IMG/VR virus record: IMGVR_UViG_2563366888_000003 | Strand: one strand, 5' to 3' | DNA length: 19,451 nt | DNA from: a virus | Taxonomy: Duplodnaviria; Heunggongvirae; Uroviricota; Caudoviricetes | Part shown: one piece after another, positions 177 to 19,451 of the stretch | Position numbering within the stretch: the stretch's first letter is position 1 | Layout: each line of letters begins with the position of its first letter | The notes under the pieces: generated by a model | What the model saw: the letters and a program-made list of their open reading frames with translations, nothing else | Databases searched by the model: none | Told to the model about the DNA's origin: nothing | Program-made: the position numbers and the translations under genes

Positions 177-256
177 GAGATAACAATCAACTAATACTGT
201 TTTGTTGATTTTTGCTTGTAATTGGCGTTCTGGTCTGATTTTTGTGGAGTAAGTTG

Positions 257-640
257 ATGCGTGATATTCAGATGGTTCTTGAGCGTTGGGGAGCGTGGGC
301 GGCTAATAATCATGAAGATGTGACCTGGTCGTCCATTGCCGCCGGTTTTAAGGGATTAATTACTTCAAAAGTAAAATCTCGCCCGCAATGTTGTGACGAT
401 GACGCTATGATCATTTGCGGGTGCATGGCCCGTCTGAAAAAGAACAACAGCGATTTGCACGATTTATTAGTAGATTATTATGTAGTCGGTATGACATTCA
501 TGTCACTGGCAGGTAAGCATTGCTGCTCTGATGGTTATATCGGGAAAAGGTTACAGAAGGCTGAGGGCATAATTGAAGGGATGTTAATGGCATTAGATAT
601 CCAGTTAGAGATGGATATCGTTGTTAATAACTCTAATTAA
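257..640 (+). CDS. Q: Late-gene antiterminator Q (phage 82 / DLP12 QuuD-type), 127 aa
   Basis: Translation [34 protein letters not shown]... with Cys-rich motifs, recognised as a QuuD/Q82-family antiterminator. ATG at 257 chosen with GGAG 8 nt upstream; the six-frame track start at 242 is a TTG. TAA stop at 638-640. Confidence 0.85.
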
Positions 641-660
641 TATGCCAATTGTTTACTAAA

Positions 661-691
661 AATTATTAAAAATGGGGCGTTGAGACGCCCC
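661..691 (-). terminator. Candidate rho-independent terminator for the minus-strand porin transcript
   Basis: GC-rich stem GGGGCG (674-679) / CGCCCC (686-691) with a 6-nt loop. Read on the minus strand the hairpin is followed by ATTTTTAATAA (complement of 663-673). Confidence 0.45.
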
Positions 692-779
692 CAAAAATAA
701 AGGGTAATATATAACAGAAGGTTTATATAGTTAGAAGCAAGGTTGTGCTTCTAAAGGAAGTGGCTTGAGGGAGCCACTT

Positions 780-819
780 ATATGTTGGGGAGGCAACGCC
801 TCCCGCAACATATCTTTTT
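780..819 (+). terminator. Candidate rho-independent terminator on plus strand downstream of Q (tR'-like), lying in the porin 3' UTR
   Basis: Imperfect 15-bp stem ATATGTTGGGGAGGC (780-794) / GCCTCCCGCAACATAT (798-813), loop AAC, followed by CTTTTT (814-819). Confidence 0.4.
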
Positions 820-829
820 CGTAATCAGA

Positions 830-1912
830 TTAGAACTGGTAAACCAGACCTACAGCGACGATGTCGTCGGTATCAATATCAGCTGTTTTGGTAAACTTAC
901 TATCGTCAATTAAGTTGATTTTGTAATCAACAAAAGTGGACATGTTTTTATTAAAGTAGTAAGTAGCACCGACATCGACATACTTGACTAAGTCTCGGTC
1001 ACCATGAACACCAAGGTCTTTACCTTTTGACTGAAGGTAAGCAACAGATGGGCGCAGACCGAAGTCAAACTGATATTGTGCTACTGCTTCAAAGTTTTGT
1101 GCTTTGTTTGCAATATGGTTATTACCAAAAACGGTCATATTCTGAGTTTCAGAATATGTGGTAGCCAGATAGATATTGTTCGCATCATATTTCAGGCCTG
1201 CAGCCCATACTTCCGCATTTTTGCCGGAGGCATTGAATTTGCTCTTACCATAGGCGACCTGACCGTCAGTGCGATCTGATTTAGCATAGGTTGCACCCAC
1301 GCCGAATCCTTCATACTCATAAGTAGTGGAGAAACCGAAACCATCACCATTGGCTTCAGTTACGTCAGTGCGGTCATTTTTACCCTGATACTGAGCAGCA
1401 AAGTTCAGGCCATCGACCAGACCAAAGAAGTCGTTGTTACGATAAGTTGCAACACCAGTAGTGCGACCAGTCATGAACACATCTGTTTGGGTCCAGGTAT
1501 CACCACCGAATTCTGGCAGAACGTCAGTCCACGCACCGATGTCGTATGCTACACCGTAGTTACGGCCGTAATCGATTGAGCCGTAATCACCAAATTTCAG
1601 GCCTGCAAATGCAAGACGGGTTTTGTCTTTGGAAGAACCTTGAGATTCAGCGCGGTTGCCTTTGAATTCATATTCCCACTGACCGAAACCAGTCAGTTGA
1701 TCGTTGATTTGGGTTTCACCTTTGAAGCCAAGACGGGCATAAGTAGTATCACCATCATCTGCATCATTAGAGGAGAAGTAGTGCTTAGCATTAACTTTCC
1801 CGTACAGATCCAGCTTGTTACTGTCTTTATTATAAATTTCAGCTGCCTGAGCAGACATCGCCATCAGTACTGATGCAGCTACAGCAGAAATTGCCACTGT
1901 TAATTTTTTCAT
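830..1912 (-). CDS. nmpC: Phage-encoded general porin (OmpC/PhoE family; Lc of phage PA-2 / NmpC of DLP12 type), 360 aa precursor
   Basis: Translation from the ATG at 1910-1912 begins [23 protein letters not shown] followed by AEIYNKD (signal peptide with AQA cleavage site), carries OmpC-like motifs and ends in the beta-barrel C-terminal motif YQF. The six-frame track ORF extends 20 codons further upstream (to 1972), which I reject in favour of the signal-peptide start. Confidence 0.9.
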
Positions 1913-2340
1913 CGTGAGCCCTTTTTTTGAACTATTATTAAAAAATGATGTCACTGCGCGATAAATATTCATCTAATCAATGTGATTATTTCAAGATGTA
2001 AGTTTTGGTTTCTCGTTTGATTTGTGAAGTAGATCTCTATTTTTATCTGAACTTTTTTCTATCGAATCCTATTCATGGCTCTTGGCTGAATAAAAATAAA
2101 TCTATTAGCCAATTTATATTAATGGCTGTTATTTATAAGTGCTCTATAATTTGAAGGTTCAATTTAAATCGGCTAAAAATAACGCTGGAAATTATTTGTT
2201 GGTTATTTGTTGAGATTTGCTTATGTATTTGTAGTGGTGTTTTCAATACTCGGTAGCATTCTCGCAAATATCATTTAGTGGTTTACGTACGTAAAAAATT
2301 GGTTATGCTGTTAAGAGTGGTTACTTCGTCACACAGCTTA

Positions 2341-2372
2341 AACCCGCCGTCGAGCGGGTTTTTCCATTTTTT
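2341..2372 (+). terminator. Rho-independent terminator upstream of the lysis cassette
   Basis: Stem AACCCGC (2341-2347) / GCGGGTT (2354-2360), loop CGTCGA, followed by TTTCCATTTTTT (2361-2372). Confidence 0.5.
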
Positions 2373-2484
2373 GAGTCTCGATATTAGCTGATAACCCAAT
2401 ACCTGAGTTATTCACTGACTCCGAGTCTGTTACGTTTCGTAGTATTCCCTCAATTTACACCCGCTTTGTCTGCGAGGTGGGGTT

Positions 2485-2700
2485 ATGAAATCCATGGATA
2501 AGTTAACAACGGGTGTCGCCTATGGCACCTCAGCAGGTAGTGCCGGGTACTGGTTTTTACAGCTGCTAGATAAAGTCACGCCCTCACAGTGGGCGGCAAT
2601 TGGAGTGCTGGGTAGCCTGGTATTTGGCCTGCTGACGTACCTGACAAACCTTTATTTCAAGATTAAAGAAGATAAGCGCAAGGCTGCGAGAGGTGAATAA
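2485..2700 (+). CDS. S: Class II holin, phage 21 S21-type pinholin with dual-start motif (antiholin from Met1, holin from Met4)
   Basis: [71 protein letters not shown]: two transmembrane segments, charged C-terminal tail, Met1-Lys-Ser-Met4 dual start. RBS GAGGTGGGG upstream. The stop overlaps the R start (TAATG). Confidence 0.9.
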
Positions 2701-3197
2701 TGCCTCCATCATTACGAAAAGCCGTTGCTGCTGCTATTGGTGGCGGAGCAATTGCTATAGCATCAGTGTTAATTACTGGCCCAAGTGGTAACGATGGTCT
2801 GGAAGGTGTCAGCTACATACCATACAAAGATATTGTTGGTGTATGGACTGTATGTCACGGGCATACAGGAAAAGACATCATGCTCGGTAAAACGTATACC
2901 AAAGCAGAATGCAAAGCACTCTTGAATAAAGACCTTGCCACTGTCGCCAGACAAATTAACCCGTACATCAAAGTCGATATACCGGAAACAACGCGCGGCG
3001 CTCTTTACTCATTCGTTTACAACGTGGGTGCTGGCAATTTCAGAACATCGACGCTTCTTCGCAAAATAAACCAGGGCGATATCAAAGGCGCATGTGATCA
3101 GCTACGTCGCTGGACATATGCTGGCGGTAAGCAATGGAAAGGTCTCATGACTCGTCGTGAGATTGAGCGTGAAATCTGTTTGTGGGGTCAGCAATGA
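2700..3197 (+). CDS. R: SAR endolysin (phage 21 R21-type lysozyme with N-terminal signal-anchor-release domain)
   Basis: Gly/Ala-rich N-terminal segment [20 protein letters not shown] followed by the T4-lysozyme-like catalytic triad positions E35, D44, T50 counted in the translation. Coupled to the holin stop. Confidence 0.9.
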
Positions 3198-3655
3198 ACA
3201 GAGTAACCGCGATTATCTCCGCTCTGGTTATCTGCATCATCGTCTGCCTGTCATGGGCTGTTAATCATTACCGTGATAACGCCATTACCTACAAAGCCCA
3301 GCGCGACAAAAATGCCAGAGAACTGAAGCTGGCGAACGCGGCAATTACTGACATGCAGATGCGTCAGCGTGATGTTGCTGCGCTCGATGCAAAATACACG
3401 AAGGAGTTAGCTGATGCGAAAGCTGAAAATGATGCTCTGCGTGATGATGTTGCCGCTGGTCGTCGTCGGTTGCACATCAAAGCAGTCTGTCAGTCAGTGC
3501 GTGAAGCCACCACCGCCTCCGGCGTGGATAATGCAGCCTCCCCCCGACTGGCAGACACCGCTGAACGGGATTATTTCACCCTCAGAGAGAGGCTGATCAC
3601 TATGCAAAAACAACTGGAAGGAACCCAGAAGTATATTAATGAGCAGTGCAGATAG
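3194..3655 (+). CDS. Rz: Rz i-spanin (inner-membrane spanin subunit)
   Basis: [26 protein letters not shown]... with N-terminal TM segment and coiled-coil periplasmic domain, near-identical to lambda Rz as I recall it. ATG at 3194 overlaps the R stop (ATGA). The track start at 3182 is a GTG. Confidence 0.9.
3414..3596 (+). CDS. Rz1: Rz1 o-spanin lipoprotein, fully embedded in the +1 frame of Rz
   Basis: [24 protein letters not shown]... with lipobox VVGC, Pro-rich mature region [15 protein letters not shown], 60 aa, matching lambda Rz1. Confidence 0.88.
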
Positions 3656-3686
3656 AGCTGCCCATATCGATGGGCAACTCATGCAA

Positions 3687-3980
3687 TTATTGTGAGCAAT
3701 ACACACGCGCTTCCAGCGGAGTATAAATGCCTAAAGTAATAAAACCGAGAAATCCATTTACGAATGTTTGCTGGGTTTCTGTTTTAACAACATTTTCTGC
3801 GCCGCCACAAATTTTGGCTGCATCAACAGTTTTCTCCTGTCCAATTCCCGAAACGAAGAAATGATGGGTGATGGTTTCCTTTGGTGTTACTGCTGTCGGT
3901 TTGTTTCCAACAGTAAACGTCTGTTGAGCACATCCTGTAATAAGCATTGCCAGAGCGGCAGAAAACAACATTTTTTTCAT
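3687..3980 (-). CDS. bor: Bor outer-membrane lipoprotein (serum-resistance moron), 97 aa
   Basis: Translation from the ATG at 3978-3980: MKKMLFSAALAMLITGCAQQTFTV... with lipobox LITGC, near-identical to lambda Bor. The track ORF extends 16 codons upstream; the lipoprotein signal-peptide start was chosen. Confidence 0.9.
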   Translation of the reverse strand: MKKMLFSAALAMLITGCAQQTFTVGNKPTAVTPKETITHHFFVSGIGQEKTVDAAKICGGAENVVKTETQQTFVNGFLGFITLGIYTPLEARVYCSQ

Positions 3981-4341
3981 CTTATTATCCTGCATTGTTA
4001 AAAACGGCAGAATCCTATGTGACAACAATTAAACGATAGTTAAATGGATTGATGAAAATTAAAACTATATAGGTGGATGCTCAGCCTATTGGAGGAGGGG
4101 GGGGCACTCAGAATCCTGTGGAATGAAATAAACCGCTCTATCTGTCCATTACCCTTTTAGCTGCGCTGTATCGTCGCCGTATTCCCGCATTAACCATGAC
4201 CGTAGCCCGACGGGGAATTCCTTCTGCGTGAGTGTGCGGGAATAATCAAAAACGATGCACACCGGGTTTTACTGTGCTGACAGACGCAGGGTTACCCTCA
4301 TAGTCGCTTTTCCGGTGCGATGGTGGAAGAAACCGGGATGT

Positions 4342-4536
4342 TCATCCATCATCACTTTGGATTGATGTATATGCTCTCTTTTCTGACGTTAGTCTCCGAC
4401 GGCAGGCTTCAATGACCCAGGCTGAGAAATTCCCGGACCCTTTTTGCTCAAGAGCGATGTTAATTTGTTCAATCATTTGGTTAGGAAAGCGGATGTTGCG
4501 GGTTGTTGTTCTGCGGGTTCTGTTCTTCGTTGACAT
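4342..4536 (-). CDS. Small conserved cos-proximal protein (DUF3950 / YlcI-like, possible ribbon-helix-helix DNA-binding protein), 64 aa
   Basis: MSTKNRTRRTTTRNIRFPNQMIEQINIALEQKGSGNFSAWVIEACRRRL...; the same small ORF sits at the right end of lambda just before cos, as I recall. Basic N-terminus then a short helix-rich core. Confidence 0.7.
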   Translation of the reverse strand: MSTKNRTRRTTTRNIRFPNQMIEQINIALEQKGSGNFSAWVIEACRRRLTSEKRAYTSIQSDDG

Positions 4537-4699
4537 GAGGTTGCCCCGTATTCAGTGTCGCTGATTTGTATTGTCTGAAGTTGTTTTTACGTTAAGTTGA
4601 TGCAGATCAATTAATACGATACCTGCGTCATAATTGATTATTTGACGTGGTTTGATGGCGTAGATGCACGTTGTGACATGTAGATGATAATTATTATCA

Positions 4700-4905
4700 T
4701 TTTGCGGGTCCTTTCCGGCGATCCGACAGGTTACGGGGCGGCGACCTCGTGGGTTTTCGCTATTTATGAAAATTTTCCGGCTTAAGGCGTTTCCGTTCTT
4801 CTTCGCCGTAACTTCATGTTTTTATTTAAAACACCCCCTAAAAAGAAAGGAAACGACAGGTGCTGAAAACGGGCTTTTTGGCCTCTGTCGTTTCCTTTCT
4901 CTGTT
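4700..4905 (+). other. cos site: cosQ, cosN nicking site (GGGCGGCGACCT at 4736-4747) and cosB with R3 (4788-4799), R2 (4844-4855, inverted) and R1 (4889-4900)
   Basis: The lambda 12-nt cohesive-end sequence GGGCGGCGACCT occurs exactly at 4736-4747, flanked upstream by lambda right-end-like sequence and downstream by three CGTTTCC-type Nu1-binding repeats and an AT-rich IHF-like segment, ending at the Nu1 start. Confidence 0.85.
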
Positions 4906-4924: not shown

Positions 4925-5444
4925 ATGGAAGTCAACAAAAAGCAGCTGGCTGACATTTTCGGTGCGAGTATCCGTACCATTCAGAACTGGCAGGAACAGG
5001 GAATGCCCGTTCTGCGAGGCGGTGGCAAGGGTAATGAGGTGCTTTATGACTCTGCCGCCGTTATAAAATGGTATGCCGAAAGGGATGCTGAAATTGAGAA
5101 CGAAAAGCTGCGCCGGGAGGTTGAAGAACTGCGGCAGGCCCGCGAGGCAGATCTCCAGCCAGGGACTATTGAGTACGAACGCCATCGACTTACGCGTGCG
5201 CAGGCCGACGCACAGGAACTGAAGAATGCCAGAGACTCCGCTGAAGTGGTGGAAACCGCATTCTGTACTTTCGTGCTGTCGCGGATCGCAGGTGAAATTG
5301 CCAGTATTCTCGACGGGATCCCCCTGTCGGTGCAGCGGCGTTTTCCGGAACTGGAAAACCGACATGTTGATTTCCTGAAACGGGATATCATCAAAGCCAT
5401 GAACAAAGCAGCCGCGCTGGATGAACTGATACCGGGGTTGCTGA

Positions 5445-13688: not shown

Positions 13689-14429
13689 ATGCCTGTACCA
13701 AATCCTACAATGCCGGTGAAAGGTGCCGGGACCACCCTGTGGGTTTATAAGGGGAGCGGTGACCCTTATGCGAATCCGCTTTCAGACGTTGACTGGTCGC
13801 GTCTGGCAAAAGTTAAAGACCTGACGCCCGGCGAACTGACCGCTGAGTCCTATGACGACAGCTATCTCGATGATGAAGATGCAGACTGGACTGCGACCGG
13901 GCAGGGGCAGAAATCTGCCGGAGATACCAGCTTCACGCTGGCGTGGATGCCCGGAGAGCAGGGGCAGCAGGCGCTGCTGGCGTGGTTTAATGAAGGCGAT
14001 ACCCGTGCCTATAAAATCCGCTTCCCGAACGGCACGGTCGATGTGTTCCGTGGCTGGGTCAGCAGTATCGGTAAGGCGGTGACGGCGAAGGAAGTGATCA
14101 CCCGCACGGTGAAAGTCACCAATGTGGGCCGTCCGTCGATGGCAGAAGATCGCAGCACGGTAACAGCGGCAACCGGCATGACCGTGACGCCTGCCAGCAC
14201 CTCGGTGGTGAAAGGGCAGAGCACCACGCTGACCGTGGCCTTCCAGCCGGAGGGCGTAACCGACAAGAGCTTTCGTGCGGTGTCTGCGGATAAAACAAAA
14301 GCCACCGTGTCGGTCAGTGGTATGACCATCACCGTGAACGGCGTTGCTGCAGGCAAGGTCAACATTCCGGTTGTATCCGGTAATGGTGAACTTGCTGCGG
14401 TTGCAGAAATCACCGTCACCGACAGTTAA
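13689..14429 (+). CDS. V: Major tail tube protein V (with C-terminal Ig-like domain)
   Basis: [31 protein letters not shown]..., 246 aa, RBS GAGGA upstream. The track start 13659 is rejected in favour of the lambda-equivalent ATG at 13689. Confidence 0.93.
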
Positions 14430-14444
14430 TCCGGAGAGTCAGCG

Positions 14445-14867
14445 ATGTTCCTGAAAACCGAATCATTTGAACATAACGGCGTGACCGTCACGCTTTCTGA
14501 ACTGTCAGCCCTGCAGCGTATTGAGCATCTTGCCTGGTTGAAAGAGCAGGAAAAAAAGGCTGAATCCAGTGGCAACCTGCAGGTGTCTGTAGAGGCGCTT
14601 ATCAGAGGCGGGGCGTTTCTGGTGGCGATGTCTCTGTGGCATAACCATCCACAGAAGACAAAGCTGCCGTCCATGAATGAAGCCATTACGCAGATTGAGC
14701 AGGAAGTGCTTACCACCTGGCCCACGGAGGCAATTGCTCAGGCTGAAAACGTGGTGTTACGTCTGTCCGGAATGTCTGAGTTTGTGGTGAATAATGCCCC
14801 TGAACAGGCAGAGGACGCCGGGCCTGCAGAGCCTGTTTCTGCGGGAAAGTGTTCGACGGTGAGCTGA
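14445..14867 (+). CDS. G: Tail assembly chaperone G
   Basis: MFLKTESFEHNGVTVTLSELSALQRIEHLAWLKEQ..., 140 aa, matches lambda gpG. Contains the slippery heptamer near its 3' end. Confidence 0.92.
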   Translation: MFLKTESFEHNGVTVTLSELSALQRIEHLAWLKEQEKKAESSGNLQVSVEALIRGGAFLVAMSLWHNHPQKTKLPSMNEAITQIEQEVLTTWPTEAIAQAENVVLRLSGMSEFVVNNAPEQAEDAGPAEPVSAGKCSTVS

Positions 14868-15283
14868 GTTTTGCCCTGAAACTGGCGCGTGAGATGGGGC
14901 GACCCGACTGGCGCGCCATGCTTGCCGGGATGTCATCCACGGAGTATGCCGACTGGCACCGCTTTTACAGTACCCATTATTTTCATGATGTTCTGCTGGA
15001 TATGCACTTTTCCGGGCTGACGTACACCGTACTCAGCCTGTTTTTCAGCGATCCGGATATGCATCCGCTGGATTTCAGTCTGCTGAACCGGCGCGAGGCT
15101 GACGAAGAGCCTGAAGATGATGTGCTGATGCAGAAAGCGGCAGGGCTTGCCGGAGGCGTTCGTTTTGGCCCGGACGGGAATGAAGTTATCCCCGCTTCCC
15201 CGGATGTGGCGGACATGACGGAGGATGACGTAATGCTGATGACAGTATCAGAAGGGATCGCAGGAGGAGTCCGGTATGGCTGA
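14445..15283 (+). CDS. GT: Tail assembly chaperone fusion G-T produced by programmed -1 ribosomal frameshift
   Basis: Slippery heptamer GGGAAAG at 14843-14849, 5 codons before the G stop. The -1 frame (track ORF 14849..15283) stays open to 15283 and overlaps the H start, exactly as in lambda G/GT. Confidence 0.85.
14843..14849 (+). other. Programmed -1 frameshift slippery site GGGAAAG (G to GT)
   Basis: The heptamer is seen directly at 14843-14849, and the downstream -1 frame is open for about 144 codons. Confidence 0.85.
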
Positions 15284-18157: not shown

Positions 18158-18855
18158 TGCAGGATATCCGGCAGGAAACACTGAATGAATGCACCCGTGC
18201 GGAGCAGTCGGCCAGCGTGGTGCTCTGGGAAATCGACCTGACAGAGGTCGGTGGAGAACGTTATTTTTTCTGTAATGAGCAGAACGAAAAAGGTGAGCCG
18301 GTCACCTGGCAGGGGCGACAGTATCAGCCGTATCCCATTCAGGGGAGTGGTTTTGAACTGAATGGCAAAGGCACCAGTACGCGCCCCACGCTGACGGTTT
18401 CTAACCTGTACGGTATGGTCACCGGTATGGTGGAAGATCTGCAGAGTCTGGTCGGCGGAACGGTGGTCCGGCGTAAGGTTTACGCCCGTTTTCTGGATGC
18501 GGTGAACTTCGTCAACGGAAACAGTGACGCCGATCCGGAGCAGGAGGTGATCAGCCGCTGGCGCATCGAGCAGTGCAGCGAACTGAGCGCGGTGAGTGCC
18601 TCCTTTGTACTGTCCACGCCGACGGAAACGGATGGCGCTGTTTTTCCGGGGCGTATCATGCTGGCCAACACCTGCACCTGGACCTATCGCGGCGATGAGT
18701 GCGGTTATCACGGTCCGGCAGTCGCTGATGAATATGACCAGCCGACGTCCGATATCACGAAGGATAAATGCAGCAAATGCCTGAGCGGCTGTAAGTTTCG
18801 CAATAACGTCGGCAATTTTGGCGGCTTCCTTTCCATTAACAAACTTTCGCAGTAA
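18157..18855 (+). CDS. L: Tail tip protein L
   Basis: 232 aa, MQDIRQETLNECTRAEQSASVVLWEIDLTEVGGERYFF... with C-terminal Cys cluster. Matches lambda gpL. Confidence 0.93.
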   Translation: MQDIRQETLNECTRAEQSASVVLWEIDLTEVGGERYFFCNEQNEKGEPVTWQGRQYQPYPIQGSGFELNGKGTSTRPTLTVSNLYGMVTGMVEDLQSLVGGTVVRRKVYARFLDAVNFVNGNSDADPEQEVISRWRIEQCSELSAVSASFVLSTPTETDGAVFPGRIMLANTCTWTYRGDECGYHGPAVADEYDQPTSDITKDKCSKCLSGCKFRNNVGNFGGFLSINKLSQ

Positions 18856-18860
18856 ATACC

Positions 18861-19451
18861 ATGACAGAGACAGAATCAGCGATTCTGGCGCACGCCCGGC
18901 GATGTGCGCCAGCGGAGTCGTGCGGCTTCGTGGTGAGAGCGCCGGAGGGGGAAAGATATTTTCCCTGCGTGAATATTTCCGGTGAGCCGGAGGATTATTT
19001 CCGGATGGCTCCGGAGGACTGGCTGCAGGCAGAGATGCAGGGTGAGATTGTGGCGCTGGTCCACAGCCACCCCGGTGGTCTGCCCTGGCTGAGTGAGGCT
19101 GACCGGCGGCTGCAGGTGCAGAGTGATTTGCCGTGGTGGCTGGTCTGCCGGGGGACGATTCATAAATTCCGCTGTGTGCCGCATCTCACCGGGCGGCGCT
19201 TTGAGCACGGGGTGACGGACTGTTACACGCTGTTCCGGGATGCTTATCATCTGGCGGGAATTGAGATGCCGGATTTTCATCGCGAGGATGACTGGTGGCG
19301 TCACGGTCAGAATCTCTATCTGGATAATCTGGAGGCCACAGGGCTGTATCAGGTGCCGTTGTCATCAGCACAACCGGGCGATGTGCTGCTGTGCTGTTTT
19401 GGTTCATCGGTGCCGAATCATGCCGCCATTTACTGTGGTGATGGCGAGCTG
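18861..19451 (+). CDS. K: Tail tip assembly protein K (JAMM/MPN-type motif region; partial, 3' end beyond window). The conventional lambda K start corresponds to the internal ATG at 19005
   Basis: Open frame from the ATG at 18861, 6 nt after the L stop, continuous to the window end. It contains HSHPGGLPWLSEAD (JAMM-like H-x-H-x7-S-x2-D) and matches lambda gpK from MAPEDWLQAEMQGEIVALVHSHPGG onward. Not in the six-frame track, presumably because no stop falls inside the window. Confidence 0.8.
   Translation, partial: MTETESAILAHARRCAPAESCGFVVRAPEGERYFPCVNISGEPEDYFRMAPEDWLQAEMQGEIVALVHSHPGGLPWLSEADRRLQVQSDLPWWLVCRGTIHKFRCVPHLTGRRFEHGVTDCYTLFRDAYHLAGIEMPDFHREDDWWRHGQNLYLDNLEATGLYQVPLSSAQPGDVLLCCFGSSVPNHAAIYCGDGEL

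Follow-up and report, generated by a model that had tools for sequence, protein, structure and literature searches.

Gene K of a lambda-like phage probably encodes a 247-residue JAB–NlpC/P60 protein, and the 199-residue lambda K is likely an artefact of the reference record

Gene K of the lambdoid phage described here most probably starts at the ATG at 18861, immediately after gene L, and encodes a 247-residue protein in which an N-terminal JAB domain is joined to a C-terminal NlpC/P60 domain. We assign this reading a probability of roughly 0.9, the N-terminus being deduced from sequence. The product is 48 residues longer than the 199-residue K annotated in the lambda reference sequence. Very probably, that shorter protein arose because a single base was left out of the 1982 record, and the true lambda K would have 247 residues as well. 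The K studied here is an already known protein, an ordinary lambdoid gpK/TAPK, whose architecture was published in 2006 and for which 247 residues is the dominant annotation.

Results

Gene order and reading frame

Throughout, the window denotes the whole analysed stretch of 19,451 nucleotides, taken from the IMG/VR virus record IMGVR_UViG_2563366888_000003. Its last tail genes, H, M, L and K, follow one another (Table 1), with M, L and K tightly packed: H and M overlap in ATGA, and the start of L lies on the stop of M (TGATG). Over positions 18700-19451, which include the last 156 nt of L, the window is 94% identical at the DNA level to resequenced lambda, and L plus K are 97-98% identical in DNA to those of phages ev207, 21, 434 and others. 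The K product matches PHROG phrog_30, 'minor tail protein', with E = 1e-129. Genes I and J would be located past the last base of the window; in every relative inspected they come after K.

Gene L ends with a TAA at 18853-18855, and the sixth base past this end opens the ATG at 18861-18863. The frame of K is open from 18840, the preceding stop being a TAA at 18837-18839; between that stop and 18861 there is no ATG, GTG or TTG, and 18861 is the earliest possible start of K. From there the frame runs free of stops for 197 codons, up to the window end at 19451. An IMG/VR contig shares these 197 codons at 100% identity, and its ORF reaches 247 residues. Codon 49 of the same frame is the ATG at 19005-19007, 144 nt (48 codons) 3' of the first; it opens MAPEDWLQAEMQGEIVALVHSHPGG and matches the annotated start of lambda K. 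An earlier note on this DNA had proposed that the K frame opens at the ATG just after L, 48 codons before 19005. Recomputation confirmed these coordinates, and the 48-residue translation given there was an exact match. The open frame by itself is weak evidence for a long K, the chance of meeting no stop in 48 random codons being (61/64)^48 = 0.10; support beyond chance comes from the domain match, together with conservation and the pattern of substitutions. A minus-strand ORF lying over K at 18876-19304 (142 aa) was dismissed as a shadow ORF of G+C-rich coding DNA, all conservation fitting the plus-strand K frame.

Table 1. Features of the tail gene region and of gene K, with positions in the window
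Feature	Position	Strand	Basis
Gene H	15276-17831		
Gene M	17828-18157		
Gene L, tail tip protein, 232 aa	18157-18855	+	ORF list; PHROG phrog_18/4199 'minor tail protein', E = 1e-152
L-K spacer ATACC, 5 nt	18856-18860	+	sequence; without Shine-Dalgarno match
Gene K, probable long form, codons 1-197 of 247, ended by window edge	18861-19451	+	translation; relatives
N-terminal 48 codons of K: JAB helix 1 and strands 1-2	18861-19004	+	Pfam, conservation, dN/dS, AlphaFold2
JAB/MPN+ (JAMM) metalloprotease domain, residues 1 to ~105	18861-19175	+	PF14464, PDB 2kks, Foldseek
Predicted catalytic Glu19 of JAB domain	18915-18917	+	in AESCGF
Small G+C hairpin TTTCCGG-TGAG-CCGGAGG	18976-18993	+	terminator-like scan; pairs most of internal GGAGG
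Internal Shine-Dalgarno-like GGAGGA (18989-18994) and ATG codon 49 (19005-19007)	18989-19007	+	sequence
JAMM zinc motif HSHPGGLPWLSEAD, H68-x-H70-x7-S78-xx-D81	19062-19103	+	sequence
NlpC/P60 (C40) cysteine peptidase domain, ended by window edge	19191-19451	+	PF00877
Catalytic Cys121	19221-19223	+	
Catalytic His187	19419-19421	+	
Peptides expected from the long K, window phage: MTETESAILAHAR, TETESAILAHAR, CAPAESCGFVVR, YFPCVNISGEPEDYFR			
Peptides expected from the long K, lambda equivalents: TQTESAILAHAR, CAPAESCGFVVSTPEGER, YFPCVNISGEPEAYFR			

The two peptidase domains of K

On the long K, the Pfam family PF14464 (Prok-JAB) aligned with residues 4-104, from position 4 to position 112 of a profile of 114, and scored 53.8 bits against a curated gathering score of 25 bits. 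When the protein was taken from Met49, only profile positions 63-112 were matched and the score of 23.8 bits fell under that cutoff, and the 48-residue segment alone matched profile positions 3-51. The full JAMM motif, given as E-x(n)-H-S/T-H-x7-S-x2-D in PMC300881, is present in the window as E19, H68-S69-H70, S78 and D81. A solved bacterial JAB protein, PDB 2kks, aligns to residues 7-105 of K with E = 2e-5.

The fold was modelled with AlphaFold2 on a close homolog of full length (97% identity, 247 aa; alignment of 98 sequences), the window K itself ending at residue 197. The model reached a mean pLDDT of 96.8 and a pTM of 0.91, and its residues 1-48 comprise a helix (3-15) and two strands (21-27 and 30-36). 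Foldseek searches against the PDB retrieved JAMM1 of P. furiosus (5ld9; rmsd 2.6 A over 109 columns), and further JAMM matches were 2kks, AMSH, Rpn11 and CSN5. Profile and model together support residues 1-48 as the N-terminal half of the JAB fold, an integral part of it that would contribute the catalytic Glu19. This agrees with the suggestion in the earlier note that the extra N-terminus completes an MPN/JAMM fold, for both the Pfam match and the modelled helix and strands extend through it, and the structure prediction proposed there gave, for the 97%-identical homolog, a JAMM fold that includes residues 1-48. An acidic and Cys-containing portion was expected there ahead of the HxH motif; Glu19, Cys21, Gly22 and Asn38 are 94-100% conserved in 100 divergent homologs. 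A zinc (iso)peptidase function is a prediction for K, and the papers searched contained no assay of gpK.

The second domain, PF00877, covers residues 111-196 (profile positions 1-76 of 105) with 32.6 bits against a cutoff of 23, the match stopping at the window end. Among homologs D120 never varies, and conservation of C121 and H187 is 90% or higher; the presumed third catalytic residue, His199, is invariant in the family and lies past the window end, where it is visible in the relatives only. NlpC/P60 matches found by Foldseek were MepS/Spr and other NlpC/P60 structures.

Conservation and selection over the first 48 codons

HMMER, run exhaustively against 1.84 billion cluster representatives, yielded 2412 that are homologous to K at E <= 1e-3. 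Divergent homologs (35-54% identity, 220-270 aa) align with query residues 2-10 through their own residues 3-15, and their N-termini therefore coincide with that of the long K. Per 100 such homologs, the residue of the window K was conserved in 84 at H11, 84 at A12, 93 at P17, 99 at E19, 94 at C21, 100 at G22, 75 at Y33, 100 at N38 and 96 at F47; further on, no exchange is seen at H68, H70 or D81, and S78 is kept in 90%. Position 49 is Met in 10 of the 100, and Ile in 67.

At shorter distances, 86 close loci were compared, made up of 80 IMG/VR loci, five resequenced lambda derivatives and ev207. In all 86 the K ATG is kept and there is no in-frame stop. Variable sites at codon positions 1, 2 and 3 numbered 7, 3 and 19 in codons 1-48, and 17, 12 and 65 in the downstream codons. 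Between the window and six diverged phages (PPompW, PhiR12_2, Stx1_EH1992, Stx2_EH1846, Stx2a_WGPS8 and Fels-1), dN/dS was 0.09-0.34 over codons 2-48, at dS 0.58-0.84, and 0.08-0.16 over codons 49-197. All six carry a K annotated at 244-247 aa from the equivalent ATG, as does ev207. In the four Stx-type relatives codon 49 specifies Ile, and thus offers no internal start. These patterns support coding-type purifying selection on codons 1-48, similar to that on the remaining gene.

Conservation of the upstream codons, by dN/dS and by codon position, had been named in the earlier note as a check, and the low ratios, the third-position bias and the frame open in 86 of 86 loci all favour the long form. 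The related expectation, that relatives would be free of in-frame stops, holds in the 86 close loci and would seem to fail in the lambda reference record, where the frame is broken by what is very probably a single-base error (see below). The longer two-domain K put forward there is likewise supported, with JAB and NlpC/P60 matches above their cutoffs, relatives of 244-247 aa, and selection acting over codons 2-48.

The same data bear on the alternative that K is made solely as a 199-residue NlpC/P60 peptidase from ATG 19005, the 144 nt upstream being an untranslated spacer or a small ORF. Such a spacer would have to show a third-position bias and dN/dS values in the range given above, and to encode E19 in 99 and G22 and N38 in 100 of 100 homologs, whereas at the proposed start codon, Met49, the majority of homologs, and likewise the relatives among Stx phages, have Ile and hence no start. 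The protein would begin with half a JAB domain, deprived of the catalytic Glu and of three core elements, and an untranslated gap of 148 nt would be an outlier in the otherwise overlapping H-M-L-K series. On the other side stand the annotation of the lambda reference and of RefSeq, several clusters of 199-aa proteins with thousands of members each, and an acceptable spacing of 10-11 nt between a GGAGGA and this ATG. We regard a K made in the short form only as highly improbable, also because the frame break in the reference, on which the classic annotation is built, is in all likelihood an error of the record.

A base probably omitted from the lambda reference record

In the lambda reference (J02459/NC_001416) the last base of L is 14127, and the annotated K, a protein of 199 aa (AAA96551/NP_040598), spans 14276-14875. 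An upstream ATG exists at 14133, in a frame shifted by one base from that of K. The contrast drawn in the earlier note between an in-frame upstream start and the classic lambda start thus stands for the window and not for the lambda reference, and since the upstream ORF is offset there by one base, the classic annotation was no choice between two in-frame ATGs. Where the reference reads GAGGCTATTTCC, five independently resequenced derivatives (PV340536, KT232076, LC730321, lambda imm21 and DE3) read GAGGCGTATTTCC, with an additional G after 14266 that results in a continuous K ORF of 247 codons. As the missing G breaks this ORF, the internal ATG preceded by a Shine-Dalgarno sequence was left as the only plausible K start.

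Residues 1-149 of the annotated lambda K correspond to residues 49-197 of the window K, with the same HxH...S..D motif and NlpC/P60 domain, the reference protein being without the first 48 residues. Once the G is restored, lambda K has 247 residues and is collinear with the window K, and the resequenced lambda K differs from it at a few residues only, among them D45 (window) for A and A50 for S. A product begun at the internal ATG would read MAPEDW in the window phage and MSPEDW in lambda.

The additional G is present in every lambda that was sequenced independently. In BLAST alignments, HK629 and HK630 differ in length from the reference by the same single base, and in whole-genome comparison LC730321 and PV340536 share a small set of differences from J02459, +G after 14266 among them. 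All 121 lambda-type junctions of IMG/VR contain the G, and the junction without it had no exact match in IMG/VR and none in JGI metagenome contigs. Two metagenome contigs bear on the reference lineage: L220 (14,498 bp) corresponds to J02459 6224-20720 with +G as its sole difference, and has at 20661 the reference-lineage base A, where other laboratory lambdas have G; L155 equals J02459 6832-19716 save one substitution and +G. Because these contigs match J02459 and yet have the additional base, reference-lineage DNA, when assembled de novo, contains the G. A hairpin in lambda, CTCCGG-TGAG-CCGGAG, ends 3 nt before the missing base, and is a plausible gel-compression site that may have caused the omission.

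One may ask instead whether the G-less allele was real in Sanger's cI857 Sam7 stock, where K would have been split or truncated and the JAB half dispensable for plaques. The other differences between J02459 and the resequenced lambdas are mostly A/T in the reference where G/C is found elsewhere, as might be expected, in our own interpretation, if a mutagen had acted on one stock. Two GenBank entries, OR974322 and OR474059, agree with the G-less reference, and the former also has the Sam7 change. We do not count these entries as independent support, for whole-genome comparison suggests that both are reference-derived: neither cI857 nor ind1 is found in OR974322, which follows the reference elsewhere, as a consensus built along the reference would. 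L220, with no mismatch over 14.5 kb and with A at 20661, nevertheless carries the G, and L155 is similar. Together with the lack of exact matches to the G-less junction in IMG/VR and the JGI contigs, and with the position of the missing base 3 nt past a G+C hairpin of the kind at which gel compression would typically arise, this makes a real G-less allele an unlikely explanation, and an omission in the record the preferred one.

A programmed frameshift in lambda K was also considered and rejected, the frame break being absent from every independent sequence. The heptamer GGGAAAG at 18949-18955, a conceivable slippery site, is in the wrong phase for the K frame and no commoner than chance would have it (5 matches, 2.9 expected).

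The annotation has followed the sequence only in part. In lambda imm21 and DE3 the DNA has the G, and these curated records still keep a 199-aa K with a marked ribosome binding site, a circumstance that would favour the short form; the 2025 lambda record PV340536 annotates K at 247 aa. UniProt P03729 likewise gives lambda K as 199 residues, and the breseq lambda example lists '14,266 +G' as an intergenic change between L and K. The literature searched contained no explicit statement of a reference error at 14266 or of a lambda K of 247 aa. A review of 2020 refers to gpK 'residues 52-182 out of 199 in total' (PMC7291167).

Translation initiation and the internal ATG

The ATG at 18861 is without a Shine-Dalgarno sequence, in the window and in lambda alike, from which we infer that initiation of K is probably coupled to termination of L. 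The spacer between the two genes measures 4, 5 or 10 nt in the relatives, changing by non-multiples of three while the K ATG is kept. In Fels-1 and WGPS8, where K is uncoupled from L, the equivalent ATG has a GGAG or AGGAG of its own; in WGPS8 the two genes are separated by a moron. The L-K spacer contained no promoter- or terminator-like sites.

The internal ATG at 19005 is preceded by GGAGGA at a distance of 10 nt, and with no such sequence at 18861 an internal start is possible on sequence grounds, if improbable. Most of the internal GGAGG is paired in a small hairpin, which folds as DNA with -6.1 kcal/mol in the window and -6.7 kcal/mol in lambda (z = -3.2). The hairpin was picked up in a scan for terminators and discarded as one, lying inside coding sequence and lacking the T-run that is typical of a strong terminator.

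A possible consequence is that two products are made, the 247-residue K and a minor 199-residue isoform by internal initiation at Met49, in a way reminiscent of lambda C/Nu3 and S105/S107. In the lambda-like subgroup the pair of Met49 and Shine-Dalgarno sequence is kept throughout, and gene callers consistently favour the internal site. Outside this subgroup, however, Met49 occurs in 10 of 100 homologs, and in the Stx-phage relatives it is replaced by Ile. The GGAGG can be explained by the coding of E-P-E-(D/A/E) and is mostly buried in the hairpin, a start at residue 49 would fall in the middle of a compact domain, and the papers searched gave no experimental data for a second product. We therefore consider a second isoform unlikely. 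Slightly less probable again is an elaborated version, in which lambda-type alleles would produce an L-coupled 247-residue enzyme together with a 199-residue isoform lacking a functional JAB, in a ratio that may matter for the tail tip; the hairpin over the internal Shine-Dalgarno sequence could set that ratio, by analogy with lambda G/GT or C/Nu3.

In sequence databases, most K-related clusters are of 247 aa with PF14464 and PF00877, several of them having from thousands to more than 12,000 members, and a minority, several with thousands of members each, are of 199 aa. Three of four contigs with 199-aa calls that were inspected have an intact in-frame 48-codon ORF with an ATG just past L, and the fourth has a TAT-to-TAG change. 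The 199-aa gene calls appear to be mainly an artefact of start choice, of a kind to which gene callers are prone: where a coupled true start is without a Shine-Dalgarno sequence, an internal ATG that is preceded by such a sequence is chosen in its place.

Discussion

The 247-residue K has the make-up of a family recognized some time ago. In lambdoid and T1-like phages, a tail assembly protein termed TAPK was described as a fusion of JAB and NlpC/P60 domains by Iyer, Burroughs and Aravind in 2006 (PMC1779556). The window K resembles TAPK and lambda gpK in its position, right after L in an H-M-L-K-I-J cluster, in its two-domain make-up, and in the length of 247 aa that is reached in relatives. 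The JAB part resembles stand-alone JAMM proteins (JAMM1, 5ld9/5lda; DSY2949, 2kks; the haloarchaeal desampylase NF041370), which have the same fold and the E...HxHx7SxxD motif. Unlike K, these proteins stand alone, whereas K is fused to NlpC/P60 and encoded in a phage tail operon, and sequence identity to them is only ~21-24%. K scores 29 bits against a cutoff of 130 for the NCBIfam model NF041370 and is not a member of that equivalog. The C-terminus of K is similarly related to the NlpC/P60 protein MepS/Spr of E. coli (PDB 2k1g, 8xup), with which it shares a papain-like fold and a Cys-His-His arrangement. In contrast to MepS/Spr, K has no signal peptide and is likely to act in the cytoplasm during assembly, and it may cleave a protein, gpI, instead of peptidoglycan.

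With this in mind, K can be seen as a cytoplasmic tail-assembly factor with two predicted peptidase domains. Stand-alone JAMMs cleave ubiquitin-like SAMPs from their targets, and the same activity is predicted for K on gpI: the JAB domain of TAPK was proposed to cut gpI behind the C-terminal glycine of its ubiquitin-like N-terminal domain and in this way to set that domain free (PMC1779556). Following the literature, K would cut this domain off the neighbouring gpI in the course of tail-tip assembly, and would then not be retained in the virion. In lambda, gpK is needed for tail assembly and is absent from virions (PMC10721106; PMC12617516). In the cryo-EM structure of the tail, gpI is visible from residue ~101 onward only (PMC11101478); this gap is compatible with removal of an N-terminal domain and is no proof of it.

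For the phage of the window the choice of K start matters little, since most databases already annotate 247 residues. The value of our finding lies rather in curation: J02459, NC_001416, DE3, lambda imm21 and the 2020 review all describe gpK as a single peptidase of 199 residues, and a lambda K cloned or modelled after that annotation would contain a truncated half-domain. With the G restored, lambda gpK would have a complete JAMM domain, including its catalytic glutamate, and such a domain bears on the role of gpK in tail-tip assembly and on the removal of the gpI domain.

The missing base in the lambda reference

In J02459, the lambda reference, one G is absent from K: the reference has GAGGC^TATTTCC, and every independent lambda sequence has GAGGCGTATTTCC. 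Without this G, K in the reference falls into two pieces, a stub of 47 codons and the annotated ORF of 199 codons. L220 and L155, two metagenome contigs that were assembled de novo and belong to the reference lineage, also contain the G. Next to the equivalent site, the window holds a small hairpin (TTTCCGG-TGAG-CCGGAGG), whose lambda counterpart is a perfect 6-bp stem. The hairpin is a likely cause of the gel compression that would underlie the error in the lambda reference.

Comparison of whole genomes revealed eight differences from J02459 that are common to the lambda genomes LC730321 and PV340536, comprising two indels and six substitutions. At every substituted position (6/6) J02459 carries A or T while both other genomes carry G or C. 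Instead of errors in reading, mutagenesis of the cI857 Sam7 stock that was sequenced might account for this bias.

Coordinates of features
Feature	Sequence	Position	Remarks
Missing-G site	J02459	14266/14267	1767/1768 in L003 (lambda reference); window equivalent near 18993-18996
Indels, LC730321 and PV340536	J02459	138/139; 14266	deletion of G138/139; +G after 14266
Substitutions, LC730321 and PV340536	J02459	20661, 22444, 25662, 31016, 34934, 45618	A>G, A>G, T>C, T>C, A>G, T>C
Q-like antiterminator	window	242-640	
380-aa gene	window	830-1972	minus strand; sole match PHROG phrog_410 (function unknown)
Endolysin	window	2700-3197	
Rz-like spanin	window	3182-3655	
Gene G	window	14445-14867	
GGGAAAG, first	window	14843-14849	
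T frame	window	14849-15283	
GGGAAAG, second	window	18949-18955	within K
Hairpin	window	18976-18993	
In-frame TAG	L224	near 70-78	ENA ERZ28660271 scaffold_37003
Ant gene	L094	1-581	Stx2a_WGPS8
Gene I, lambda reference	L003	2274-2945	223 aa
Gene I, PV340536 and metagenome calls	L005	1646 onward	190 aa
Gene I, ev207 RefSeq	L002	2911-3516	

Neighbouring genes and other motifs

The start of gene I, which follows K, differs between annotations. The lambda reference gives it a 103-nt overlap with K, PV340536 and the metagenome gene calls begin it at an ATGA overlapping the K stop, and ev207 has a third start, 37 nt within K. The position of the gpI start lies past the window end.

Gene G contains the sequence GGGAAAG close to its 3' end, where the T frame overlaps the gene, and this is expected to be the lambda-type G-T -1 frameshift site. 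The second copy, within K, does not have the right phase and is attributed to chance.

At its left end (242-4900) the window begins in the late-regulatory and lysis region and then crosses into Nu1 at 4925, thus showing the prophage-type order through cos. The minus-strand gene has a moron-like placement, between Q and the lysis genes.

Reading and initiation of K in relatives

Among about 90 relatives inspected, the only in-frame stop in the 48-codon segment is found in the metagenome contig L224, where the codon matching K Tyr46 has changed from TAT to TAG (GCGTAGTTCCGG); the stop represents either an error of assembly or a naturally occurring nonsense allele. In the Stx2 phage relative Stx2a_WGPS8, a gene annotated 'anti-repressor Ant', carrying a terminator-like GC hairpin with a T-run, is inserted directly upstream of K, the place held by L in other relatives. 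K of this phage has its own AGGAG, six bases upstream of the same long-form ATG. As to the internal start, the hairpin in the window pairs most of the Shine-Dalgarno-like GGAGG upstream of Met49, and may thereby lower internal initiation at Met49.
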